The notes under the pieces are model-generated. The model ran no database searches. It worked only from the letters and a program-made list of their open reading frames with translations, and was not told where the DNA came from. A program made the translations under genes and the position numbers. 42,469 nucleotides of DNA from a virus (lineage: Duplodnaviria; Heunggongvirae; Uroviricota; Caudoviricetes), in the IMG/VR virus record IMGVR_UViG_2541047705_000011, one strand, 5' to 3'. Every line of letters begins with the position of its first letter. Position 1 is the stretch's first letter. This document shows positions 2,697 to 37,138 of the stretch, piece by piece.

Positions 2697-3087
2697 CGTC
2701 TTTTCTCCCCGGAATTAACTCGCGTGGATTATCGGAACGGTGATAGAGCCATATACCAATACGCACAGCGACAATTGCTGACACGAATGCGCCTGCAGAG
2801 AAAACAATCCCTTTTTCAAAAGAGTCCTGCGTGATGGTAGGGATCAGGCTGGCTATGCCGATAAGAATTGATGCTGCTGGTTTGTAAAAGAGAAGGCCGC
2901 AAAGAAAGCTGAGCATCGACAGGAGCACCCGGCGACGGATGGGGTACTCTACTGCAGAGGTAACAAAAATTACCGCCCCAGCCAAAGCCCCTAAAGCAAC
3001 CTCCGGAGGGACACCTGCAATAACTGCAGCAAGAGAACCAAAACTAAGCAACTGATTTAATTGCTCACTTGTTACTTGAGCAGACAT
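2683..3087 (-). CDS. Holin
   Basis: 134 aa, multiple TM segments, charged C-terminus; RBS AGGAG 6 nt upstream; first gene of lysis cassette. Confidence 0.65.
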   Translation of the reverse strand: MSAQVTSEQLNQLLSFGSLAAVIAGVPPEVALGALAGAVIFVTSAVEYPIRRRVLLSMLSFLCGLLFYKPAASILIGIASLIPTITQDSFEKGIVFSAGAFVSAIVAVRIGIWLYHRSDNPRELIPGRKDDGNA

Positions 3088-3147
3088 ACTTTCTCCTGTT
3101 TACTATCTATAAGCCAGTCAATTATTGATGACTAAACCCGCATAGTA

Positions 3148-3159
3148 AACCATATATGA
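3148..3159 (-). promoter_or_regulatory. Copy of conserved late-unit motif CATATRTGGTT, upstream of lysis operon
   Basis: Minus-strand TCATATATGGTT about 60 nt upstream of holin start; related copies at 6578-6589 and 27269-27280. Confidence 0.35.
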
Positions 3160-3368
3160 ATCATTATTGTTCCATATCATATATCTCAATAAAAGTACTA
3201 ATGATTTTACAGAACGAGCCAGCAGAGTGGGGGCAGTTGTACAGGAACCATAGACTTAATTTTGTATTTAATAATGCTATGGTGTAATAAACCTGAACAT
3301 GTATTTAAAATACGTACTGATTCATGATAGAATTCAAAGATAACTTTTCACCAACTCCGTTTTTGATA

Positions 3369-3395
3369 CCCGCAATATTTTGCGGGCTTTTTTTT
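3369..3395 (+). terminator. Hairpin plus T8, canonical only in plus orientation, at tailspike 3' end
   Basis: CCCGCAA-TATT-TTGCGGG then C and T8; the T-run overlaps the tailspike stop codon; no plus-strand CDS upstream. Confidence 0.45.
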
Positions 3396-6300
3396 AACGT
3401 TCTTCCAGAGACTGAACCCGCTCTTTTATCTTATCCATTTCTCTGCGCTGCCATGCTGCCTCGATATAGAATAAGAGATCAGGTCTGACCCCCCATCTAG
3501 ATCCTGCTGGCGTTATTTCAACGCGCTCAATGATGTCTTCCATTACCATCACTGGATTATCATCCTCATCAACAATGATGCTCCCGTCATTATCAGTCAG
3601 CGGCATTTCCCTTTGGCCAGTAATGACGTCATCATATACTGCGGGATAATCGTCATAGCAAAGAAAGGCATAGCGGCATGTTGTGCTTTCTTCTTCCATG
3701 AGTCCGTGAGAAATAAGAACATCACGAAGTTGCTGCGCGATTACACCATGATGTATCCTCGCCCCTTCTTCCCCCTTTATAGCGACAGCGTTCAGCCATT
3801 TATAAGCGATATACCTGACGTCACCCCAGGCATCCAGCAATGCTTCGTCAGGAGAGACCGGCTCTGTCTTTAATGTTCCGTCACTGGTAACCACAGGATT
3901 GGAGCCAAGATAAACTGTCGAGAACCTGTTTCCCGGACCACCAAGAGCATTTACATTATCAAGATAAGGTTTAACATCTCCGTTCTCAAAAAGATGTTCG
4001 AGTGCGTTATATACCGCGCGACGTGGAGTACTGCTTCCGGAACCATGCAACGTTATCATTGCACCATCTGCTGAAGACGTTGTTTCACCTCCGCTAACGA
4101 TTAATCTCTGAGCGGTAACATCATCAGACGGTACTTTCTTCGCAATAATGGCGTAATTACCCTCAAGTTTGACTTCCGCGCGAACTTGTCCTGATGTACC
4201 TGCATGGACAGTCAGTGACTGGACGGCAACATCATCTGTGAAATCAACGGGTACAGGAACCGTCCTCACGCCTGACGTCGACATAAAAGTAGGAAGCGTT
4301 CTGTTAGGAGTGGCTCCGTAGACAAAATCCCTTGAAACAAATTCTTCCTGTTTAATTTTCACCCTGAAACAATACAAATCAGCCGGGTGACCATCGTGAA
4401 CATAAGGATATTTTCTGTTGTTATCCCCTATGCTCCATGGGTTTAGAAAGTCTTCCCCACCGAAAATGTAGTACAGCCAGTTGTCTTTGATACAAACTGA
4501 ACCAACACCAACCGCAGAGTTAACTATTCCGCCCTGATAAATCTGATCAGTAACATTAACCCACTCTACATTATCCAGACTCCACTCATTGACGTTAACT
4601 CTGGTCATAAATGTTCTTGGATAATTTCCTGCATAACGGTTATCAGGTTCTCCTCCTTCCCACTCACCAAATGCGCGCTCACTGCCAAAAATAATCAGCT
4701 CATCGCCAACTTTGGCAAAAGGAAGGTTTGAGTGATGAACATTATTTGGGAAGCGAAGAGAATTCCATGATGTACCTAAATCAGAGCTTCTGTGCAATGA
4801 ACTACCGGGTTGAGTACTTAATGTCCCCCTGGTCGTCAGATACAGAATGCCATCATAATATTTTACACATGGCTCAGATGCATTCGCCTCATATTCTGCA
4901 GGTATGCGTCTGCGAACAAAGCTACCAGGAGAACCGAAAGCATCAGAGAAATAGAGTATCCCAAGCTCGCGTGGACCAATATCACCATTATGGTAGCCAA
5001 CAGCAAAACTGTTATCGCTAATCGTCGCAAAACTGTGAATCTCAGTAACAGGAGTGCTTCCGTCAACAAAAGAAGGAATAGTTCCAAGACTGGTTTTTCT
5101 CCATGGTGACGAGTGAAATGATGTACCAAAACTCCAGTATCTACCCTCGTTATTCTGATCCACATCCTGGGTATTTTGCGTCGTAACTGTAAAAGTATTT
5201 TTATCAATAACAGTAGTCACCGTCATATTCCCGGTAACACCTGTAACACCAGAGTTTGAGAAGTTGACAAAATCACCAGCAAATAATCCGTGATCAGTAA
5301 TGCGAATATAAGCGACTTGCTGATTTGCTGCTTTCGTTATACCACCATAAACGCGAAGGCTGCGACTCATTGGGCGATCCCACAACTCTGCAACCTGCAG
5401 TTTATTTCCGCTCACGGTCCGCGTCTCAATTACAGCAAAAAGGCGATTTCTGACAACCCCCATACTCATGCAGTGATAGTTAACTGTGGGATAGTTTTCA
5501 TGTAAATCTGTAAGCCATTCCGGCGTTGTCCAGGTCTTCCCGTCATCTCCTGAGCGAACCCATGCAACATGGAGGTTATTTACACCATGGCGGTCTCCAG
5601 CCATAAAAGGCGCATAGATGACATTGTCATATACAAACGTTTTATCCTGCGTCCAGGCGTTGTACCACGGTGTATCTGTAATTTTAAATAACTCTCCCTG
5701 GATAAAATCTTCAGAAGCATAAAAAAGAGGCTGGCCCGGTATTCTCTCAAATAAAAAACGAGCATTTTTAAATCGACTGACATCCGGAAGAGTTGATACT
5801 TTAAAAGTAAGCCCTAATCCGTCAATTTTATAACCTGGAGATGAGGCTTCAAGGCACGCGCTTATTGCAGTGGAATCGTCATTTATACCATCACCAACAG
5901 CTCCAAAATCTTTGGGGCTAATAGCATCACGCATTTTATCCTGGAACGTTCGGTACACAGCCCCAGAACCATACTGAATAAACCAACCAAAACCACCAAC
6001 AACCCCGGCGATTGCAGCATCGACATAATTACGCATTGAGCGATTATTTACAGCGTCCTGCTCAAATGATGGATCTGCAAGGTTAGAAATTTTGTTTTGC
6101 TTTGCATCGTAATATTTTGCAAGCAAAGATGGTTTCATCAATGCACGTCTGAACCACCCAAAACATTGCTGGATCAGCATCGTCAGGTAGTCAAAGGCAT
6201 CTTCATGCACTTCGGGGAAAAATTTTCCCTGATTGCGAAGGTCTGTCTCCTGCACTACATCAAGCACACGATCTATCGTAATTCGCCATCCAGTAGCAAG

Positions 6301-6577: not shown

Positions 6578-6589
6578 AACCACATATGG
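6578..6589 (-). promoter_or_regulatory. Copy of conserved late-unit motif CATATRTGGTT, upstream of tailspike
   Basis: Minus-strand CCATATGTGGTT then N5 and GGTAATA, 65-76 nt upstream of tailspike start. Confidence 0.35.
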
Positions 6590-6616
6590 ATAGAAAGGCT
6601 GTAAATACGAATAGAT

Positions 6617-6633
6617 ATTACCTTTCAGGTAAT
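6617..6633. promoter_or_regulatory. Operator-like palindrome ATTACC-TTTCA-GGTAAT (perfect)
   Basis: Perfect 6-bp inverted arms, 5-bp spacer; between tailspike start and the LexA-box gene. Confidence 0.6.
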
Positions 6634-7864: not shown

Positions 7865-7958
7865 TGTGCCATAGTAATCGGGCACTGGCAAAATCCAGTG
7901 CCGGGATTGGTCTCCCGGATTACTACAGAGGCACATATGCCGCATAAGCGGTTTTTTT
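7865..7958 (+). other. Candidate structured RNA/leader: three-way junction fold followed by short hairpin and T7 run
   Basis: Nested complementarity TGTGCC/GGCACA, GTAATC/GATTAC, GGCACTGG/CCAGTGCC, GGGA/TCCC; then CCGC-ATAA-GCGG plus TTTTTTT; about 155 nt upstream of BRO start. Confidence 0.3.
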
Positions 7959-8112
7959 ATGTGTAAAGCGCACCTATTCTATGGTGGGCTGTGTGGGGGC
8001 ACCGAAAGGTGCGCCGGGTTCCTTTGTAGCCGGTAAGACCAACTCTGCACAGTTCACCACCATCTGATTGGTCTCAGCGGTGGTGATTAACCTAACTACA
8101 AAGGTGATCGCT

Positions 8113-8805
8113 ATGAATACCAAACCTTCCATCTTTTCCTTTGAGTCATCCTGCCAGATCCGTATGTTCATGATTGACGGAGAACCTTGGTTTGTCACCA
8201 AAGATGTGTGCAATGCTTTGAATATTGATGTTACACAAGCGAGAAAACTTGATAAAAAAGGCTGGAACAAAAAGGGGCTGTATTCAATACAGACCCCTGG
8301 TGGAATACAAGAACTATCCATCGTTTCAGAATCAGGTCTCTACATCCTTATTCTGCGTTGCAAAGAGGCAATGACTGAGGGAACGAGAGCATTCAGATTT
8401 CTTGAATGGGTTACAGGTGAGGTTCTTCCTCAGATCCGCCGCACCGGAAGTTACATTAAAAACTCGCTCCCGCAGGAAGAACGCATAAAGATGGTTGCCG
8501 ACCAGGTAGCCAACGCCACGGCGTCAGCAGTAATGCAGGCGATGAAGATAGAGAACAAAACCTACAGTGCCCCACTGAAGCCCGGCTACCGTAGCCTGAT
8601 TCATTCGCCGTCTGGTGTTCTCGGCCTGACGGAGAACTCACTGCTGATGAATCTGCTGAACCAGTTACAGGACGACGGGCACGACGTATCGGGCGCGGCG
8701 GCGGAGCTGACCACCATGTTCTGCTACATCGTCGGTGTGAGCAAATGCCTGCGTGATATCCAGACCCACGCGGAGTACATCAACGACAAGGCAGGGTTCT
8801 TCTGA
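8113..8805 (+). CDS. BRO-N domain antirepressor
   Basis: BRO-N motif FSFESSCQIRMFMIDGEPWFVTKDVCNAL; RBS AAGGTGA; start trimmed to ATG 8113; C-terminal domain homologous to the 6709-6966 protein. Confidence 0.75.
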   Translation: MNTKPSIFSFESSCQIRMFMIDGEPWFVTKDVCNALNIDVTQARKLDKKGWNKKGLYSIQTPGGIQELSIVSESGLYILILRCKEAMTEGTRAFRFLEWVTGEVLPQIRRTGSYIKNSLPQEERIKMVADQVANATASAVMQAMKIENKTYSAPLKPGYRSLIHSPSGVLGLTENSLLMNLLNQLQDDGHDVSGAAAELTTMFCYIVGVSKCLRDIQTHAEYINDKAGFF

Positions 8806-27023: not shown

Positions 27024-27230
27024 TTACTGACCAAGCAGTGTTTTACCGCTGGTATTAGCGGTTGATGTGTCGCCCTGAGAACCGGTAAGCAGCGTAGAAC
27101 TACGACCAGCAGCAGCGCGACGGCGACGAGTTTCTTCGTCGCGGGCATCAACAACGGCGGCATCCTGCTCCTGTGGTGCTGCCTGAACTTCTGGTGTTGC
27201 AGGCACTGACGGTGAGCTACCCATGCACAT
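27024..27230 (-). CDS. Small low-complexity protein upstream of portal (68 aa)
   Basis: RBS GGAGTCATTGAT identical in context to the portal RBS. Confidence 0.4.
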   Translation of the reverse strand: MCMGSSPSVPATPEVQAAPQEQDAAVVDARDEETRRRRAAAGRSSTLLTGSQGDTSTANTSGKTLLGQ

Positions 27231-27268
27231 ATCAATGACTCCGTACGCAATTAAATTATTACCAATTT

Positions 27269-27280
27269 AACCACATATGA
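27269..27280 (-). promoter_or_regulatory. Copy of conserved late-unit motif CATATRTGGTT, upstream of portal unit
   Basis: Minus-strand TCATATGTGGTT then N5 and GGTAATA, 39-50 nt upstream of the 27230 start. Confidence 0.35.
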
Positions 27281-27298
27281 TTTATTTATCGTAGATAG

Positions 27299-27327
27299 TT
27301 GACATTTAACGCACAAATTATTACCTT
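27299..27327 (+). promoter_or_regulatory. Sigma70-like promoter directed toward tRNA-Arg
   Basis: -35 TTGACA, 17-bp spacer, -10 TACCTT, overlapped by an operator-like palindrome. Confidence 0.5.
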
Positions 27328-27336
27328 TCAGGTAAG
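27320..27336. promoter_or_regulatory. Operator-like palindrome ATTACC-TTTCA-GGTAAG
   Basis: 11/12 arm match; overlaps the -10 of the promoter above. Confidence 0.55.
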
Positions 27337-27657
27337 CAAAGGGTTCATTCCGGTTATTAACCTGACTGGCTTGTCGTTAAATTGAACAGGTGGAGTGAGC
27401 TTTTATTTTGAGCAGTACGGCGTATGGCACATGCGCCGATAGCGGTCTGGATACGTTTAAGGGGCACCCTCCCTTGCTCGGGCAAACGAACCAGGTAGCC
27501 GGAATGTGCAAGTCGAGCGGTTTTATTCCGCGCACGGGGATTCACCATCCCGGCGATTCGGTGTGACGCCTCGGAAGAGACGAGGGTACAACGATGAGAG
27601 CATTTATGGAGCCGCGACAAAGTGTGGCGCCTTAACAGGCTAAGTGCTCTCAGCGTT

Positions 27658-27734
27658 GTGGCATTAGCTCAGTCGGACAGAGCAACCGCCTTCTAAGCGG
27701 TTGGTCGCAGGTTCGAATCCTGCATGCCACGCCA
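27658..27734 (+). tRNA. Phage-encoded tRNA-Arg (anticodon UCU)
   Basis: 77-nt cloverleaf: acceptor GTGGCAT/ATGCCAC, D-stem GCTC/GAGC, anticodon stem ACCGC/GCGGT with loop CTTCTAA, T-arm GCAGG-TTCGAAT-CCTGC, discriminator G, encoded CCA. Confidence 0.9.
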
Positions 27735-27777
27735 GAATCACGCCTAAGGACCGTGATGCCAGAAGTTCCAGGGGCTT

Positions 27778-27819
27778 GGCGGTGATGGTTTCCCTTGAAG
27801 GACTATCACCGCCCTTTTT
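27778..27819 (+). terminator. Terminator after tRNA
   Basis: 9-bp stem GGCGGTGAT/ATCACCGCC with 18-nt loop, then CTTTTT. Confidence 0.55.
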
Positions 27820-27897
27820 ACAGCAGGACGCCATTGCGATGACTTCATGCTGTAAACCAGTACAGCCACGGAAGGCATAACTCATTGCTTCCAGTTC

Positions 27898-27921
27898 GCC
27901 CGGTTCGCCGGGCATTTTTTT
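27898..27921 (+). terminator. Strong hairpin plus T7 immediately upstream of moron RBS (terminator or attenuator)
   Basis: GCCCGG-TTCG-CCGGGC, A, then TTTTTTT; RBS AAGGTGAG begins at the next base. Confidence 0.6.
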
Positions 27922-27932
27922 AAGGTGAGATC

Positions 27933-28352
27933 ATGAAAACAATTGATATGTTGGCTAAGTATCTAAATGAATGGCCATTAAAATATTCTCGTATCGTTCA
28001 GGCTGAAGACTGCGTTTTTTATGGCGTTTTTGCTGGTAATGAAATGCATTACGAAGTAATTCAGAGTGAGGGACTGGCCGGGTTAACTCTTAGCGAAGAC
28101 CATGGTACTAGCGTTACGTTCCATGACTGGATAACAGCACAACGTTCTGAAATGGAAAAAGGCGATGTGTTTGATATTTCTCGCGCTGTTTACGCTAAAG
28201 CAAAAAGTGATAATGATTACATGAGCGAACACTTATACAACATGAAGTTACAATGCCTGCATGCGGCGCTTATTCAGAATGGGTACTTCGATAAAACAAG
28301 TGCCATCAATATTGCGGAAGCCATCAACACTGGATTTAATGCCATTAAGTAA
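27933..28352 (+). CDS. Hypothetical moron protein (139 aa), no recognisable family
   Basis: ORF track; only plus-strand gene inside the minus-strand late region; RBS AAGGTGAG; terminator downstream. Confidence 0.6.
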   Translation: MKTIDMLAKYLNEWPLKYSRIVQAEDCVFYGVFAGNEMHYEVIQSEGLAGLTLSEDHGTSVTFHDWITAQRSEMEKGDVFDISRAVYAKAKSDNDYMSEHLYNMKLQCLHAALIQNGYFDKTSAINIAEAINTGFNAIK

Positions 28353-28356
28353 CACC

Positions 28357-28368
28357 GTGACATGTCAC
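28357..28368. repeat. Perfect 12-bp palindrome GTGACATGTCAC (copy 2 of 3)
   Basis: 5 nt after moron stop codon, before its terminator. Confidence 0.8.
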
Positions 28369-28372
28369 AAAC

Positions 28373-28399
28373 AGCCAGCCGATGAGCTGGCTTTGTTTT
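28373..28399 (+). terminator. Rho-independent terminator for moron gene
   Basis: AGCCAGC-loop-GCTGGCT then TTGTTTT. Confidence 0.65.
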
Positions 28400-28442
28400 A
28401 TCCTCATCAGAGGATATCAACGACATTATCCCCACCAGCGGA

Positions 28443-29918
28443 TTAAGCATAGGGATCGTAATCTGTGATGGCCTTGCCTTGCTGGTTCTGCTGCCCGGGA
28501 ATTCGCAGACGCTTCGACACAGGGAACGCAAACGTCAGCAGTAGCGCATCGCCTTTACCCGGCGAACGCCCAAGCCGCTCCTTGATATCCTCCTTCGGTT
28601 CGATAACGATTTTACCGTCCACGCGAACTTTGTACTCTGCCGCCGACAGGTCGTCTGCAGTTTCCTGGTCATCCAGCATGCCGCCCAGCCTCAGCCATGT
28701 CTTACATGAGTTGAACATCTCCCCACGCTTGTTAAGCATCTGCGGGTCAGTGGACGCACCGCCGAACGGAACAAGTTGCCATGTGCGCCCCCAGCCGTCA
28801 CCGATTGACTTCAGACCAGTTCCGTAACCGAAGTCGATGAACACTGCGTCAGCCTGGTACTGGTCTTCAAAGTCAGCGATACGCTTCGCCATAATCAGAT
28901 CGTCAGTGGTCTTGTTGCCAGTCCATAGCACCTTACTGTGCAGCCCCTGCCGCAGGTATATCACAGCGTCATCAACGCCGGAGTACGCCGGGTCAACGCC
29001 GATTATCACCGGAGCATGTGCAACCTGCGCAGCGGTTACCACCCGTTTCATTGCCTCGTCAGTAAGACCGGTAGGGATAAACTGCAATTCAGATGCATCA
29101 GGGAATATGCCGCGCACACGGATTTTAACGAAGTCGCTGTCTTCCCCGTAGTCATCAACCCATTTCTGCAACTGCTGTTTGTTAGTGCCTTCCACCGTCC
29201 GGCTGTCAATCTGCGCACACTTCCAGCGGTGTTTGTACTTGCGGAAACATTCACGGAAACGCCCGGTGTTACGCGTCGGGTTCCCGAACGCCACCCAGAT
29301 GATTTCGGTGTCTTCGTCCGTAAGCGCACCCTCAGCAACTTCCCACACCAGATCCGCAATGTTCGACGCTTCATCGAATACCACGATGATGCGTTTGCGC
29401 TCGTTGTGTAGTCCGGCGAATGCCTCAGTGTTGTGCTCAGACCAGGGGATTGCGTCAGCTCGCCACCGCTTGTCGTGCCCAGGATCATTGCTGTACATCG
29501 CAGTAGCGGTACAGGTAAACCAGTCTTTCGTGATAGCAAGGTTCGACCACTTGATAATTTCCGGCCAGGTCTTCGTTCGTAGCTGGTTGTCGGTGTTGGC
29601 GGTCACCACGACCTTACAATCCTCGCAAGTGGACATGCCCCAGTTGATCAGCATTGAGATGAATGCGGATTTACCAATACCGTGACCAGAAGCGCGTGCC
29701 AGCATAAGCGGCTGATAGCGCGTCTCTGGATTCTGCAGGTGATCACGTATCTCTCGGAACGCATCAGCCTGCCACTGACGTGGGCCGGTAGCATGTGCCA
29801 GTTCAGTACCCTCTTCCCCCCACGGGAACGCATAGAGGGCATAGCCAAGCGGATCGTGAGTGAACCCTGCAATATCCTCGATTAACTGCTCTTCAGGAGA
29901 TAACGCTGTATCTGTCAC
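28443..29918 (-). CDS. Terminase large subunit
   Basis: 491 aa; Walker A ASGHGIGKS near N-terminus; nuclease-type C-terminal half; follows small subunit. Confidence 0.85.
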   Translation of the reverse strand: MTDTALSPEEQLIEDIAGFTHDPLGYALYAFPWGEEGTELAHATGPRQWQADAFREIRDHLQNPETRYQPLMLARASGHGIGKSAFISMLINWGMSTCEDCKVVVTANTDNQLRTKTWPEIIKWSNLAITKDWFTCTATAMYSNDPGHDKRWRADAIPWSEHNTEAFAGLHNERKRIIVVFDEASNIADLVWEVAEGALTDEDTEIIWVAFGNPTRNTGRFRECFRKYKHRWKCAQIDSRTVEGTNKQQLQKWVDDYGEDSDFVKIRVRGIFPDASELQFIPTGLTDEAMKRVVTAAQVAHAPVIIGVDPAYSGVDDAVIYLRQGLHSKVLWTGNKTTDDLIMAKRIADFEDQYQADAVFIDFGYGTGLKSIGDGWGRTWQLVPFGGASTDPQMLNKRGEMFNSCKTWLRLGGMLDDQETADDLSAAEYKVRVDGKIVIEPKEDIKERLGRSPGKGDALLLTFAFPVSKRLRIPGQQNQQGKAITDYDPYA

Positions 29919-30511
29919 TGATTGCCATCCTGACGTTCTTTCAGTCTCTTCCTGGCTGCCGCTATGCGATCAGCAATTGTCACATTCACATTAACATCCA
30001 GGCGTTCTTTGAATGCGTTGACGTCGACGTGCTTACCAATCAGTTCGAGGTTCTTCACCTTGTCAGGCCATTTAATTTTTTTGAGGATTGTCTCTATCGA
30101 ATCCTCGTTCATGTTCATGATGGTCGATGACAGATCAAAGCCGCTAAGCGTAGTGCGCCAGATTTTCGGCCACTCTCGGATTGGCTTAAGGCTACCATCG
30201 TCGTTGAGGATGTCGATCACGTCCATCTGGTCGATCTCCACCAGGCGCATGAGAACGTAATCAGCACTGACGCGCATTCGTTTGTTGCGCTCCTCCATCA
30301 ACTCGGCAATCCGTTTCTGAATGCGTTCATCGCGCATCATGACACTGGCTTTAACTGCCGCTGTATTTGGGGAGAATCCTGCATTAATCGCTGCCTGAGT
30401 CTGGTTTTCAGGCGTTTTGATGTATGACTGGCAATAAGCCTCCTGCATTGCTGTTAGTGGCTTAAATTGCGTTGATTTGCGTTTATAGGTTTTAGGTTCA
30501 GCAGGCATCAT
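29915..30511 (-). CDS. Terminase small subunit
   Basis: Start trimmed to ATG 30511 (MMPAEPKTYKRK); track ORF starts at TTG 30589 with no RBS; overlaps large-subunit start. Confidence 0.65.
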   Translation of the reverse strand: MMPAEPKTYKRKSTQFKPLTAMQEAYCQSYIKTPENQTQAAINAGFSPNTAAVKASVMMRDERIQKRIAELMEERNKRMRVSADYVLMRLVEIDQMDVIDILNDDGSLKPIREWPKIWRTTLSGFDLSSTIMNMNEDSIETILKKIKWPDKVKNLELIGKHVDVNAFKERLDVNVNVTIADRIAAARKRLKERQDGNQ

Positions 30512-30518
30512 AACCACC

Positions 30519-30547
30519 GTGGTAATAGTTACCGTTGTGGTAATAGT
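30519..30547 (-). repeat. Direct repeats GTGGTAATAGT x2 (18-bp period) upstream of terminase small subunit
   Basis: Copies at 30519-30529 and 30537-30547; contain the GGTAAT half-site; lie between an upstream terminator and the TerS start. Confidence 0.5.
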
Positions 30548-30553
30548 ACCATG

Positions 30554-30580
30554 CAAAATAAAGCCGCCATAGTTGGCGGC
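30554..30580 (-). terminator. Rho-independent terminator preceding the late operon
   Basis: GCCGCCA-ACTA-TGGCGGC then TTTATTTTG on minus strand, just after the 30586 stop. Confidence 0.6.
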
Positions 30581-30585
30581 AGTAT

Positions 30586-30798
30586 TCAAAGTCCATCAAA
30601 TTCATCGTAAAAACTCTCGTCAAGATACCCTTCCCATTTACCGCGAATGAAAATTACATCCTCGCCGCAAGGGTGCTGACTGTCGATAACTATATCCCTC
30701 CTGACGCAACCATACTTATGCATGAGAAATTTAACCTCTTTCGGAAAATTTGCTGAGTTATCTCTCATATCTTCAAGGTCGTAGCGTATTTTTGGCAT
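30586..30798 (-). CDS. Hypothetical small protein (70 aa)
   Basis: Start trimmed to ATG 30798 with RBS GAAGGTG; the track start at 30819 is the ATG inside the palindrome. Confidence 0.45.
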   Translation of the reverse strand: MPKIRYDLEDMRDNSANFPKEVKFLMHKYGCVRRDIVIDSQHPCGEDVIFIRGKWEGYLDESFYDEFDGL

Positions 30799-30807
30799 AA
30801 CACCTTC

Positions 30808-30819
30808 GTGACATGTCAC
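30808..30819. repeat. Perfect 12-bp palindrome GTGACATGTCAC (copy 3 of 3)
   Basis: Overlaps stop codon of the 30816-31157 gene. Confidence 0.8.
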
Positions 30820-31157
30820 ACTATTAATTTCGTTTCATGCCAGCCTTTGGTCACCCAGCATTGCGAGTCACCATTACACGGGCATGAATTAACTGGAACT
30901 CTCTCGCCGCACTTACCGCAACGTTTTCTGCTGATCGATTTTATACGCCCGCGCACGCGTGCATCATCCTGGCGGATCAGTAACGCTATATACTCACCAA
31001 ATTCGTAAGGTGCACGCCCGGGGCGACGCGTGGCGCAGTTCCGCTCCAGCATTTCAATTTCCTGAGCATCAAGCACAATTTCCAGCTTACGCACACCAGA
31101 TGCAGCTTGTCTGGCTCTCTGAGCGGCTTTGCGCTCTGCTGCTGATTTAGCCATCAA
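30816..31157 (-). CDS. Small basic protein with N-terminal RHH-like segment and C-terminal Cys cluster (zinc-ribbon-like)
   Basis: 113 aa; AERKAAQRARQAASGVRKLEIVLDAQEIEMLE then CGKCGERVPVNSCPCNGDSQC. Confidence 0.5.
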   Translation of the reverse strand: MMAKSAAERKAAQRARQAASGVRKLEIVLDAQEIEMLERNCATRRPGRAPYEFGEYIALLIRQDDARVRGRIKSISRKRCGKCGERVPVNSCPCNGDSQCWVTKGWHETKLIV

Positions 31158-31428
31158 TATTCACCTTTATCGCGAACACCTTTACCGGTTTATCTCCGAA
31201 GTGCGGATGTGTGATTGTCTTGATTTCATATCCACCATACGGAACATCAATTCTGCGGCTGGAATCGTCGCGCTTCGGATATCCCTTCGTGATAATCAGG
31301 CGGTCATACTCGCGGAACATAATTCGCTTATTCCAGTAGTCATTACACAGGCGATACTCTTCCGTTTTCTCTCCGCGAATCATGGCATCGAAGTATTCAC
31401 CTTTGACGGCAAGTTGCAGGTTAGCCAC
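31147..31428 (-). CDS. DUF3850/ASCH-like small protein
   Basis: 93 aa; family assignment recalled from sequence pattern, not searched. Confidence 0.45.
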   Translation of the reverse strand: MANLQLAVKGEYFDAMIRGEKTEEYRLCNDYWNKRIMFREYDRLIITKGYPKRDDSSRRIDVPYGGYEIKTITHPHFGDKPVKVFAIKVNIDG

Positions 31429-31705
31429 GACCTTCCTCCTTTGGCTTGTGAATTTGTATCGTCATGCCGCTTTGAGTGGTGACTACAACGACAGAACCAG
31501 GCTTAAGGCTGTTAAGATTGAATGCTTCGTAAAACGAATCCAAGGCCAGCGCTTTTTTATTCTTCCGGTTCCACCAACGCCATCCCTTGCTACAGGCTAC
31601 ACTGACAATCCACTGTCCACTCCTGTAAGCCATATAAAACCAGATGAGCAAAACCTGAAGGAATGCTATCCAGTAAATAATCGTATATTTAGCGAAGGAG
31701 TCCAT
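31421..31705 (-). CDS. Small membrane protein (94 aa)
   Basis: Start trimmed to ATG 31705 (MDSFAKYTIIYWIAFLQVLLIWFYMAY); ATGA overlap with upstream stop. Confidence 0.5.
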   Translation of the reverse strand: MDSFAKYTIIYWIAFLQVLLIWFYMAYRSGQWIVSVACSKGWRWWNRKNKKALALDSFYEAFNLNSLKPGSVVVVTTQSGMTIQIHKPKEEGRG

Positions 31706-32592
31706 CACTTCACCTCCTGCGGCGGTTCTGGTAGCGGCATCCAGAACAAGGCGTTCCCTAACCACGATAAAGTGCCGTCGCTCAACTCCACGTATTCCCC
31801 TTGTACCTGTCCTGCCATATACTCGCCGTGCTTTGAATAAATTAAAATCCAATCATCTTGAGGGGGCATTCGCTCACTACAGCTTATCCAACCATCCGGA
31901 GTTACCGGATAGTTGCCAGCCAGTCTACACAAAACAGTCTTAACCGCCTCAATACGGTCATCATCGCAACTTTCCAGCGTATCTATGCGATCGAGCATGA
32001 TGATGGCGTTATCAATATCAGGATTGCCGGTCCACTCATTACCGCGATTGGATTCGGCAGCCTGGTTGCCGCGTACTGGTTGATTCTCGGCTTTACCCTG
32101 TCTGTCGTCGCTGCATGAATGCCCTTCCAGCCAGACCAGTGCTTGTCGCATGAAATACGCAATATGCTTGCCGTGGTAATCGTCTTCATCGATGTGAAAA
32201 GCGATACTGCGGATATATTCAATTGCGTTTTCAATGGCCTCCGGCGTTATCGGAGTTGGTCCATCGAATTCGGGCATGTCAGGACCTTTTCTGATAGCTT
32301 TAGCCAGCTCCAGCGGGTCATCGTAAAGCCAGTCGCCAGTTTGTGGGTGATTTGCTTCTGCAAGCTGCGCAGCCCATTCAAGACCATCTTTTTGACCTTG
32401 GAGATAATCAAGCGGCAACTCTTCATGATTACTTGCAGGTTCTGCACTATCAGCTTCGCGCCGCTTCTGTAGCTCTGCTGCCATCGCTCTCACGACTTCA
32501 ACTGGTGCCCTTGCAGCAAACTCTATGTTGGTGATTAGCTCATTAAGATATTGCTCGCCTGGATACTGTTTCTTATCGGTTATAGTGGTCAT
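31705..32592 (-). CDS. DUF551-like C-terminal domain protein
   Basis: Start trimmed to ATG 32592 (MTTITDKK), adjacent to upstream stop; C-terminus WISCSERMPP..WLGNALFWMPLPEPP. Confidence 0.5.
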   Translation of the reverse strand: MTTITDKKQYPGEQYLNELITNIEFAARAPVEVVRAMAAELQKRREADSAEPASNHEELPLDYLQGQKDGLEWAAQLAEANHPQTGDWLYDDPLELAKAIRKGPDMPEFDGPTPITPEAIENAIEYIRSIAFHIDEDDYHGKHIAYFMRQALVWLEGHSCSDDRQGKAENQPVRGNQAAESNRGNEWTGNPDIDNAIIMLDRIDTLESCDDDRIEAVKTVLCRLAGNYPVTPDGWISCSERMPPQDDWILIYSKHGEYMAGQVQGEYVELSDGTLSWLGNALFWMPLPEPPQEVK

Positions 32593-32593
32593 A

Positions 32594-33184
32594 TCACTCT
32601 CCTTTGATGCGAATGCCAGCGGTGCGTGGCACATTAACTTCCACGATGCGCACAGTTGGTTTGTACATCTCAATCGCTGTCAGCCAGTCAGCGCCAGTCA
32701 TGCGCTTTTCTGCATCGCCATTAGTCCAATTAACCGGTACACCAATAGCCTTCATCGCGATTTCTATTTCCCCGGCAATGGCGCTTTTCCCGCAACCAGT
32801 AAAACCAGATACAACGACCAGAACTTCACCTTTGGCTGGTTTTATTTCCCGCGCTTCCAGTTCTGCTATGCGCTTACTTCCATCCGAGATAACACCTTCG
32901 TAATACTCACGCTGCTCGTTGAGTTTTGATTTTGCTTTCTCAAGCTCAACTCTCAGCTTCCCTACCGTTAGCGCAATTTCCTCGTTCTCCTGGTCGCGGG
33001 ATTTGATGTATTGCTGGTTCCTTTCCAGTTCATCCAGCAGTGCCAGCGCGATATCTGGCGAAAAGTGCTTCATAAAATCGTTAAGCGCATTAATTCGCTG
33101 ATCGAAGGGCATTACAGGTGCTTCACCAGCAATTTTTGTTTTTTCAGCGATTTCACGAAGCTTTTGATAATCAATCTTGCTCAC
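32594..33184 (-). CDS. Hypothetical coiled-coil protein with Walker-A-like GFTGCGKS motif
   Basis: 196 aa; N-terminal coiled coil; C-terminal VVVSGFTGCGKSAIAG. Confidence 0.45.
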   Translation of the reverse strand: MSKIDYQKLREIAEKTKIAGEAPVMPFDQRINALNDFMKHFSPDIALALLDELERNQQYIKSRDQENEEIALTVGKLRVELEKAKSKLNEQREYYEGVISDGSKRIAELEAREIKPAKGEVLVVVSGFTGCGKSAIAGEIEIAMKAIGVPVNWTNGDAEKRMTGADWLTAIEMYKPTVRIVEVNVPRTAGIRIKGE

Positions 33185-33681
33185 TGGTTGCCTCCTTTGC
33201 GAAGCTCAGCGGCGAAGGCTACTGCGTGATCATGATGTTCAAGCGTGTATGCACACTCCGCAAACATCTCCACGCCCTGCGCCCGTACTTCAGCCAGGAA
33301 AGCATCGGTGGCTGGAGTTTCGCTGTGGTGCAGGGCATCATTAATAATCATCGCAGCAACTCCGGCCTGCCCTGCATCCGTGACCGACACATGCTCAAGA
33401 GTTACGGCCATTGCGTGTTTCAGCCCCGCATTCTCCGCCGCCAGCGCCGAAAACGTCTCGTGTGCCAACTTAACAGCTGCATCAGCCTGCTTAATTGACT
33501 CAATCGCTTTCTGCTGGTCTTCGGCCAGCGCATTAGCACGCGCCAGTTGCACTTCCAGTTGCGTTGCCAAATCGCTGATCAGCTTTGCCACACTACGCAT
33601 ATCAACTGCACCACATTCTGCTTTCAGTTCCGAAGCCATCTCATGCCCGGCGGAAACTAACCCTTTGATATTACTTTCCAT
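33181..33681 (-). CDS. Hypothetical protein (166 aa)
   Basis: ORF track; Ala-rich helical; overlaps downstream start. Confidence 0.45.
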   Translation of the reverse strand: MESNIKGLVSAGHEMASELKAECGAVDMRSVAKLISDLATQLEVQLARANALAEDQQKAIESIKQADAAVKLAHETFSALAAENAGLKHAMAVTLEHVSVTDAGQAGVAAMIINDALHHSETPATDAFLAEVRAQGVEMFAECAYTLEHHDHAVAFAAELRKGGNQ

Positions 33682-36434: not shown

Positions 36435-36499
36435 TTCACCCATAAGGTAACAAAAATCAAGGATAGTTACCTATGAGGTGCATTTACCTGTTGGGTAAT
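36435..36499. promoter_or_regulatory. Immunity-region operator cluster (three sites)
   Basis: 36435-36451 TTCACC-CATAA-GGTAAC; 36466-36482 GTTACC-TATGA-GGTGCA; 36483-36499 TTTACC-TGTTG-GGTAAT; candidate Cro-side promoter -35 TTGTTA / -10 TATTAT on minus strand. Confidence 0.6.
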
Positions 36500-36553: not shown

Positions 36554-37138
36554 ATGAAAAGTATCCAGGACGTCCGCAGGCAAAATCTCAACGACTTGAT
36601 CGACCGTGAATTCAATGGTGTTCAGACGCGGATGGCAGAAAAACTTGGAACTCAGGCAAATCTGGTAAACCGCTGGGCTCTTGGCAAGAAGGTTATCGGC
36701 GACCAGGTTGCGCGAAAAATTGAAGCTGCCGCCAATAAACCCCGTAACTGGCTTGATATCGATCGCTCGCTTTCTCAGGAAGGTTTTCAGCCTGTCGGCC
36801 CAAGCGACATTGGTCAGCTGGCGGCTCACAACCTGGAACGCTGGATGAGCGAAAGCCGCGACCTTTCAACACAGGGAAAACTTCACCGCGCATCCGGCGT
36901 CGCCCAGGTGACAATCAGCCGCCTGTTAAACAATGAGGTCAGCGTTTCCATTTCCACCCTGGAGAATGTTGCATCCGCATTCGGGCGTCACGGATATGAA
37001 CTACTGATTCACCCGCACGACCCTGCGACTATCAACTATGACCGCTCGCGCTACGCATTGTTACCCGAAACCGAGAAAGCAAAGATCGAAAGTTACATTG
37101 AATTTGTCATCAACCAGAACGAAAAAAACAAACAATAA
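36554..37138 (+). CDS. CI-like repressor with two HTH domains and no recognisable S24 peptidase domain
   Basis: 194 aa; HTH segments TRMAEKLGTQANLVNRW and LHRASGVAQVTISRLLN; no Ser-Lys autocleavage module seen; weak SD. Confidence 0.65.
   Translation: MKSIQDVRRQNLNDLIDREFNGVQTRMAEKLGTQANLVNRWALGKKVIGDQVARKIEAAANKPRNWLDIDRSLSQEGFQPVGPSDIGQLAAHNLERWMSESRDLSTQGKLHRASGVAQVTISRLLNNEVSVSISTLENVASAFGRHGYELLIHPHDPATINYDRSRYALLPETEKAKIESYIEFVINQNEKNKQ

Follow-up and report, generated by a model that had tools for sequence, protein, structure and literature searches.

What does a phage encode between an operator-overlapped promoter and a tRNA gene, where no protein gene is found? The question is raised by positions 27299-27734 of a stretch of 42,469 nucleotides (nt) from a virus of the Caudoviricetes (IMG/VR record IMGVR_UViG_2541047705_000011), which as a whole is called the window in the following. 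A preliminary description had proposed that a tRNA-Arg(UCU) is made here from its own promoter, through a GC-rich leader of about 330 nt that may hold an additional RNA element. This last guess was strongly borne out by a covarying fold (positions 27416-27658). The stretch encodes a member of a previously unclassified structured-RNA family with four covarying helices (P1, P2, P5 and P6) and a pseudoknot, and the conserved core of this RNA, referred to below as the element, covers 27416-27588 on the + strand. The window itself is an epsilon15/phiV10-type (Uetakevirus) phage or prophage, and its positions 27230-27940 are 98-99.9% identical to phiV10, TL-2011b and the O157 typing phages 9 and 10.

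The helices were derived by hand from compensatory changes and subsequently counted in an alignment of 34 diverse sequences (alignment A2), because RNAalifold on a MAFFT alignment mis-paired the invariant blocks. Hairpin P1 (27418-27426 with 27430-27438) is followed by P2 (27442-27450 with 27491-27499), which encloses a variable hairpin, P3. P2 is followed by an invariant strand (27500-27514); the invariant sequence GGUAGCCGGAAUGUGCAAG as read from the alignment covers 27494-27512. A further variable hairpin, P4 (+ strand, not mapped to positions), lies between this strand and P5 (27537-27540 with 27548-27551). The loop of P5 carries CACC (27543-27546), which pairs with GGUG (27560-27563) in a pseudoknot, the two strands being AACC and GGUU in five lineages. 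P6 (27569-27573 with 27581-27585) closes the core with a nearly invariant loop, GAAGAGA. Over the 34 sequences 95.6% of the cells are paired, with changes on both sides at 13 pairs (76 cells). The covariation score was 0.273 compared to 0.119 in shuffles, none of 500 reaching 0.273, and slid partners scored at most 0.071. G-U pairs are frequent and work only on the + strand, so this is the structured strand.

The conserved RNA measures about 170-240 nt, its core about 170 nt, and the core has about 50 invariant bases and a G+C content of 60%. A covariance model, R1, was used for scoring and filtering of loci. On the window R1 gives 143.5 bits over the full model length, with all helices present and one copy per locus. 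A search of Rfam 15 gave no match within 27230-27657 at E-values up to 10 and none on the copy of phage P1; on the mEp460 copy only CC0196 came up, on the other strand and at chance level (14.6 bits with a gathering score of 35, E = 1.5). A second pseudoknot, GCACAU with AUGUGC, was considered and kept only as a possibility, both strands being invariant and the sole variant uncompensated. Two short and divergent variants from metagenomes (loci L220 and L216 of our collection, 65-66 bits) are without P6 and the 3' strand of the pseudoknot, and in their P5 loop CACC is replaced by GGUC.

That the stretch is instead a small protein gene, or a site acting as DNA, is hardly credible. An open reading frame (ORF) of 87 amino acids (aa) does exist on the - strand (27357-27620), a stretch overlapping it is annotated as hypothetical protein in some records, hypothetical proteins are annotated here in phiV10 and mEp460, and one - strand frame is free of stops in 21 of the 34 core sequences. 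The same frame is interrupted in the other 13, however, many members have stops in every frame, and the core lengths of 147-179 nt include all three residues modulo 3. The protein-coding reading was rejected because of this length variation, the stops and the compensatory changes that maintain helices whose G-U pairs only work on the + strand. Against a site at the DNA level stand the three genomic positions of the element described below, which share no fitting DNA function. On the + strand no ORF of at least 60 aa lies between promoter and tRNA, the longest being 52 aa and 45 aa; the preliminary description was right on this point.

The element is widespread. Positions 27417-27660 are about 83% identical to unannotated DNA just 3' of cI in mEp460, cdtI, 2H10 and the Stx2a and Stx2c phages, about 80% identical to a stretch of phages P1, P7, D6, SJ46 and RCS47, and about 70% identical to other Uetakeviruses and to Klebsiella and Enterobacter phages. 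It was found in 590 plasmid records, mostly P1-like, and 1836 of 5426 complete E. coli genomes (34%) have the core, in up to 4 copies each. The annotation under the match was 'none' in 12 of 12 E. coli rows sampled at even steps down the ranking. Pattern scans gave more loci in viral contigs, in metagenomes and in genomes of Kosakonia, Citrobacter, Klebsiella, Enterobacter, Kluyvera, Buttiauxella, Erwinia and others; among the pattern matches in metagenomes, 86 of 120 loci were chance matches and were removed with R1. In the literature on HK639, mEp460, the P1 ban operon and antiterminator RNA we found no account of the element.

The genomic setting was determined for 151 loci. At 40 loci of Uetakevirus type the element has the portal gene on one side and terL on the other, and both genes are encoded on the strand opposite to it. 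At 68 lambdoid loci it comes after an ORF of cI size, on the same strand. At 12 loci of P1 type it is found between trnI and ban, within the C1-controlled ban operon that also holds tRNAs and a dicF-like region, and the remaining 31 loci were of other kinds or at a contig edge. In mEp460, cdtI and the Stx2 phages the element follows the cI gene, a terminator and a promoter with operators of the oR type (TTGC-N7-GCAA). The full order in mEp460 is cI stop codon, cI terminator, operators and promoter, element, about 190 nt, a strong terminator, a second terminator-like hairpin and a yfdP-like first early-left gene; the operators are two TTGC-N7-GCAA palindromes of the same type as in the cI-cro region (oR), together with a TTGCAT-N17-TATCTT promoter. 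Judging from operator and promoter motifs and from record annotations, the module would in all three settings lie on the coding strand of a repressor-controlled early unit. In phage P1 (L004) we also noted, at 1558-1677 between upl and tciA in the ban operon, a sub-threshold Rfam match to STnc100 (33.4 bits, E = 6.6e-5).

A tRNA adjoins the element in only two of these settings, directly 3' as tRNA-Arg in the Uetakeviruses and as tRNA-Ile(CAT) ending 13 nt upstream in phage P1. At 104 of 152 scanned loci (one of them a chance match) there is no tRNA within 1.5 kb. Since most loci are without a tRNA, and since the element of phage P1 lies downstream of a different one, it is an independent mobile module and not the leader of a tRNA, and it is found in three unrelated kinds of temperate phage. 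Of the leader put forward in the preliminary description, the length (about 324 nt from the expected transcription start, about 27334, to the tRNA) and the GC-rich core therefore stand, but not the assignment as tRNA leader.

In the window the candidate promoter for this RNA is of sigma-70 type and was read from the sequence (27299-27327, + strand), with the -35 hexamer TTGACA at 27299-27304, a spacer of 17 nt and the -10 hexamer TACCTT at 27322-27327. The -35 matches the consensus at 6 of 6 positions and the -10 at 3 of 6 (T1, A2 and T6), and because of these few matches in the -10 the site was not listed by the consensus promoter scan. The arrangement described earlier, a TTGACA-N17-TACCTT promoter with a palindrome over the -10, is present as stated, and related phages have kept part of it: some 15 diverged epsilon15-like (Uetakevirus) loci have the -35 TTGAC and the palindrome TTACCTTTNAGGTAA, with a variable spacer between the two.

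The palindrome of the window, TTACCTttcAGGTAA (27321-27335, without strand), overlaps both the -10 and the expected transcription start. That it is operator-like is supported by a genome-wide set: allowing up to 2 mismatches, the 15-mer occurs 18 times in the window where 0.84 copies are expected, and none of 100 shuffles reached 18. The copies cluster at regulatory regions, on both sides of an HTH_3 gene (36554-37138) and ahead of an isrK/C4/Bro-N antirepressor region. Copies of the form TTACC-N5-GGTAA are found at 6618, 7738, 7831, 8877, 27321, 34091, 34153, 36436-36498, 37196 and 37258. The distribution suggests that a single repressor, probably the HTH_3 protein of 36554-37138, governs many scattered promoters, like C1 in P1. 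The GenBank record of epsilon15 labels the homologous site 'repressor binding site' and places an IHF site beside it, overlapping it (record positions 2918-2940). A motif AACCACATATG(A/G) is common to 27260-27298 and 6578-6617, about 30-40 nt upstream of two operator copies. Operator copies 7738 and 7831 precede isrK (74.7 bits) and a C4 antisense RNA (78.6 bits), which stand in tandem at 7882-8064 (+ strand) just 5' of the Bro-N antirepressor ORF (8068-8805), and this is the arrangement of a P1 immI-like immunity circuit in an epsilon15-like phage.

The tRNA-Arg(UCU) occupies 27658-27734 on the + strand, with CCA encoded at 27732-27734. It is the single tRNA that ARAGORN reports in the window (anticodon tct at position 35), and the Rfam tRNA model RF00005 agrees with 73.3 bits against a gathering score of 29, so the tRNA is real. 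The decoding of AGA codons that had been proposed for it was examined by codon counts. In 44 ORFs of the window there are 8.3 AGA and 4.4 AGG per 1000 codons, against 1.6 and 0.87 in a 50-kb sample of the host core genome treated in the same way. The excess that was looked for is thus present, AGA being 5-fold above the host sample (odds ratio 5.2, p = 2e-16). The AGA codons are mainly found in tailspike, tail and early or accessory genes, and almost none in head, portal and terminase genes. The tRNA, already annotated in several phage records, would be a separate passenger that supplies AGA decoding. Both tRNA and operator are known features of this phage group, the latter being annotated in epsilon15.

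In Uetakeviruses the core is flanked by two hairpins of the same design. Hairpin P7 (27589-27658, + strand, from the minimum free energy fold) directly follows the core, with arms CAACGAUGAGAGCAU (27589-27603) and GUGCUCUCAGCGUUG (27644-27658) around an insert of 40 nt. Its arms differ between lineages yet pair in 16 of 16 sequence variants (-10 to -21 kcal/mol), cognate arms having a mean duplex energy of -11.9 kcal/mol compared to -8.7 for non-cognate arms. Duplex energies were used here since RNAalifold on a gapless alignment of the arms found no pairs, owing to register shifts. P7 follows the core in most copies, with a variable insert of 40-170 nt; phage P1 and its close relatives are without it, and P1-like loci of D6 type (L040) keep a short one. 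In the inserts of L005 (SPN1S) and L101 we noted T-arm-like pieces (CTGGTTCAATTCCAG, GTTCGATTC and AAGGTTCGATTCCTT), which are not tRNAs according to ARAGORN. The last base of P7 (27658) is also the first base of the tRNA, so that the element would receive its 3' end when RNase P matures the tRNA at 27657/27658. Upstream of the core, Uetakeviruses have a second hairpin of this kind, P0, which is CAAC..AAAGCGCGC ... GCGCGCUUUCAGGUGUGA in relatives. According to the alignment of the upstream region, the 5' part of the window transcript (27336-27415, + strand) holds a degenerate copy. The annotators of epsilon15 labelled the intact P0 hairpin 'RNaseIII mRNA processing' site. The two hairpins, P7 and P0, may serve to bracket RNA cargo that can be exchanged.

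In prophages of mEp460 type an RNA has already been reported from this locus. sRNA-17 of E. coli K1 strain RS218 is a 193-nt RNA defined by RACE and Northern blot (PMC7719688), and its locus corresponds to mEp460 (L002) 2989-3429. According to the published primers its 5' end is CGTTGTGGTGA, at the 3' foot of P7, and its 3' end lies at the terminator, so that the terminator of the mEp460-type prophage is a mapped RNA 3' end. The upstream piece was treated by the authors as promoter DNA, not recognised as RNA, and was used as a 'promoter fragment' for ArcA gel shifts (PMC7719688). When the primers of that study are mapped, this fragment coincides with the element, and the quantitative PCR (qPCR) amplicon spans both the element and sRNA-17, which implies that a transcript covering the element exists in the RS218 lysogen. 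In the sRNA-17 deletion mutant the most raised genes were yfdP (96-fold) and yfdR (PMC7719688), and these are the cis genes that follow directly. The reading of this locus may need to be revised. We also considered whether the element is sRNA-17 itself (193 nt, from CGTTGTGGTGAATGCG... to the GGTACCGCTCTTTT terminator) and rejected this, the window sharing only GCGTTGTGG with it before the tRNA begins. The two are parts of the same prophage locus, the element being the upstream and sRNA-17 the adjoining downstream segment, and it is this downstream segment that is replaced by tRNA-Arg in the window.

Downstream of the tRNA the window has two terminator-like hairpins on the + strand. The first, t1 (27778-27821), consists of a 14-bp stem followed by CTTTTT and was found by the consensus scan, a separate scan giving -22 kcal/mol. 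The second, t2 (27898-27921), consists of GCCCGGTTCGCCGGGC followed by ATTTTTTT, was found by two scans and leaves 11 nt between its end and the start codon of the ORF that follows, a cargo gene of 139 aa (phrog_4846, 27933-28352, + strand). In epsilon15 two stem positions of t2 differ with the pairing kept (GCCCAC..GTGGGC), and the hairpin again abuts the ORF. As t2 abuts the ribosome-binding site of the cargo ORF, there is no room for a separate cargo promoter. The cargo slot is variable in relatives, which have Tad2-like or membrane coiled-coil proteins there. A Tad2-like protein (DUF2829, anti-Thoeris) is the first ORF after the element in two unrelated backbones, the Uetakevirus locus L080 and the P1/D6-like locus L040, and SieB adjoins the lambdoid copy L024. 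Of 109 distinct loci, 89 have terminator-like hairpins, one or several, after the core and ahead of the next ORF on its strand.

Some loci have a boxA in addition. A perfect boxA of the rrn type, TGCTCTTTAACAAT, follows the core of L086 at a distance of about 34 nt, and L030 and L043 have near-perfect ones; the boxA stands after a short hairpin and in place of P7. The corresponding stretch of the window, TGCTCTCAG, has only TGCTCT of boxA and is buried in P7. The 3' arm of P7 was considered as a boxA, and its first 6-8 nt often match; the arm covaries, and we do not claim it as such.

From these arrangements we propose, as the likeliest single role but with a chance somewhat below even, that the element is an RNA-only processive antiterminator or anti-Rho element that acts in cis. 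The RNA of the window would be transcribed from the operator-overlapped promoter (27299-27335) together with tRNA-Arg(UCU), would fold while emerging and would act on its own RNA polymerase, alone or with host Nus factors. Transcription would thereby become resistant to intrinsic terminators and to Rho, in functional analogy but not homology to the HK022 put RNA or the Bacillus EAR element. Transcripts under repressor control could then pass t1 and t2 into the cargo gene, and in lambdoid phages without N they could pass the terminators between the leftward promoter and the early-left genes, while stray transcription would remain blocked. The reading is supported by the position of the element in N-less lambdoid phages, which is that of lambda nutL or HK022 putL, by the terminators ahead of genes, by the probable repressor control and by the boxA linked to the core in some loci. 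In the lambdoid carriers (mEp460, cdtI and Stx2 type) no N-like first gene was found, and for the same phage type it has been reported that an N homologue is absent, with a put-like RNA mechanism being suggested (PMC12315714). We also counted in its favour that the fold is conserved enough that it could bind a conserved host machine.

Several observations weigh against an antiterminator. There is a single copy per phage, and none was found in 3 kb of the rightward (pR) operon in mEp460 or Stx2a_1447. The cassette of the window is short, and read-through would run antisense into the terminase gene (terL) about 90 nt past the cargo ORF. In the RS218 lysogen the transcripts over the element end at the downstream terminator, as sRNA-17, and yfdP is silent. 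In loci of P1 type no terminator was predicted between the element and ban, and the part of P7 that resembles boxA is not conserved but covaries. In L030 and L086 the genes to the left and right of the element are all encoded on the other strand, which gives it the look of a stand-alone RNA gene. Furthermore, epsilon15 (L276, NC_004775) keeps t2 and the ORF but has a truncated element: only the first third is present (2634-2723, - strand, R1 35.7 bits), fused to the sequence before t2, the remainder of the element, the tRNA and t1 being deleted, which means that the module is dispensable there. A wider proposal would see in the element a self-sufficient RNA antiterminator of a new class, or a Nus-recruiting RNA, which replaces N in N-less lambdoid and Stx phages and was co-opted by P1-like and epsilon15-like phages; in our view this is possible but rather doubtful.

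The same observations may be read in other ways. As the main rival, the element could be a stable non-coding RNA acting in trans. It would be released from a polycistronic 'RNA operon' through RNase P at the adjoining tRNA, through RNase III or RNase E at P0 and P7 and through 3' trimming, and would bind a conserved host component or a defence factor early in infection or induction. We think this unlikely, though well worth considering, for the company of the element fits it: its neighbours include RNA genes (tRNA-Arg in the window; tRNA-Ile, other tRNAs and the dicF-like region in the P1 ban operon; sRNA-17 in mEp460-type prophages) as well as accessory, defence or anti-defence genes (Tad2-like and SieB). 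The ends of the element are at processing points: P7 shares its last base with the start of the tRNA, the element of phage P1 begins 13 nt after trnI, and the 5' end of sRNA-17 mapped by RACE is at the P7 foot. P0 and P7 are repeated bracket hairpins of one design, P0 being labelled as an RNase III site in epsilon15, the modules shuffle (L132 has an sRNA-17-like piece upstream of the core), and L030 and L086 resemble stand-alone genes. A trans-acting RNA does not require, however, the steady position after the leftward early promoter and before terminators at the 68 lambdoid loci. Processing is moreover compatible with a role in cis, as untethered put RNA stays active (PMC9378689). The antiterminator and the stable trans-acting RNA are not mutually exclusive.

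The bracket hairpins, with their mapped or expected cleavage points, would also fit a mere scaffold for processing and stability, in which a structured 5' block and RNase III hairpins protect or mature the RNA downstream (tRNA, sRNA-17 or mRNA) and neither RNA polymerase nor a target in trans is acted upon. RNase III sites are common in the early transcripts of phages. A pseudoknotted core with about 50 invariant bases in three phage lineages goes far beyond the needs of a stabiliser, however, and the downstream RNAs are mutually unrelated, which makes the scaffold improbable. The many invariant unpaired bases and the pseudoknot of the element would likewise fit a leader that senses a ligand or factor and adjusts early gene expression, and a riboswitch-like switch between two folds can be drawn, one with helix P1 and the other with GCACAU (27427-27432) pairing to the invariant AUGUGC (27504-27509). 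This complementary pair of invariant 6-mers overlaps the top of helix P1, where 6 of 34 sequences cannot form the A9-U17 pair. No covariation is seen in the alternative pairing, though, and the variant AUGCGC of L269 is uncompensated. No gene is common to the downstream positions (tRNA, ban, yfdP-like or varied cargo), and no expression platform lies beside the core, the terminators being 60-500 nt away and unrelated between contexts, so that we give a riboswitch-like leader only a slim chance.

A well-supported large fold thus sits where the early antitermination function of N-less lambdoid phages is expected. If the antiterminator prediction is true, it would explain the expression of delayed-early genes in these phages, including excision functions, and a third of E. 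coli genomes would carry an unrecognised polymerase-modifying RNA. If the RNA has another role, for instance as a trans-acting RNA directed at the host or at its defences, the family is still new and widespread, as it occurs in Stx2-converting phages, in 34% of complete E. coli genomes and in P1, a standard laboratory phage, so that systems for experiments are at hand. The published, virulence-linked sRNA-17 locus, where the element was taken for promoter DNA, also appears in a different light.

To our knowledge, control of polymerase processivity by RNA only is limited to a handful of cases, among them put of HK022 and EAR of Bacillus. The EAR element (eps-associated RNA) of Bacillales is a large, conserved and pseudoknotted RNA within an operon that promotes read-through of terminators, and is a precedent for the mid-operon position of our element in phage P1. 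The two are unrelated in sequence and fold, as the element has no match to any Rfam family, and EAR belongs to a different phylum and is not phage-borne. With put the element shares a place just downstream of a repressor-controlled leftward promoter, ahead of terminators, in phages without N. A put site has about 70 nt and two stem-loops and is present as putL and putR (PMC9378689), whereas the core of the element is 173 nt long, comprises four helices and a pseudoknot and is present once, after the leftward promoter; it so differs from put in size and in the left and right copies. The put RNA suppresses termination in cis, through the beta' zinc-binding domain of RNA polymerase. R1 with filters off gave at most 0.9 bits on positions 27,500-33,500 of HK022 (L275), the expected pL/pR region of a record in which put is not annotated.

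The element holds the same genomic position in lambdoid phages as lambda nutL, and the boxB loop of nutL, GAAGA, resembles the GAAGAGA on the covarying P6 stem; the likeness is limited to the loop and is a lead only. The perfect rrn-type boxA after the core in some loci is a further likeness to lambda nut and to the boxB-boxA order of rrn leaders. A nut site of the lambda type (boxA CGCUCUUA / UGCUCUUUAACAA, boxB and N) was rejected, as there is no N-like ORF and boxA is found only in a minority (L086, L030 and L043); on the lambda N leader R1 gave at most 0.7 bits with filters off. Species 1 and 2 RNAs of T4 are stable RNAs of a phage tRNA cluster, co-transcribed with tRNAs. They and the RNA genes of the P1 ban operon share with the element co-transcription with tRNAs and an expected release by tRNA-processing enzymes, and we know of no sequence relation between the T4 RNAs and the element. 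The element is thus distinct from the Rfam families, from put, from the lambda N leader and from sRNA-17, and is best described as a new RNA family, which may prove to be a further variant among the few RNA antiterminators.

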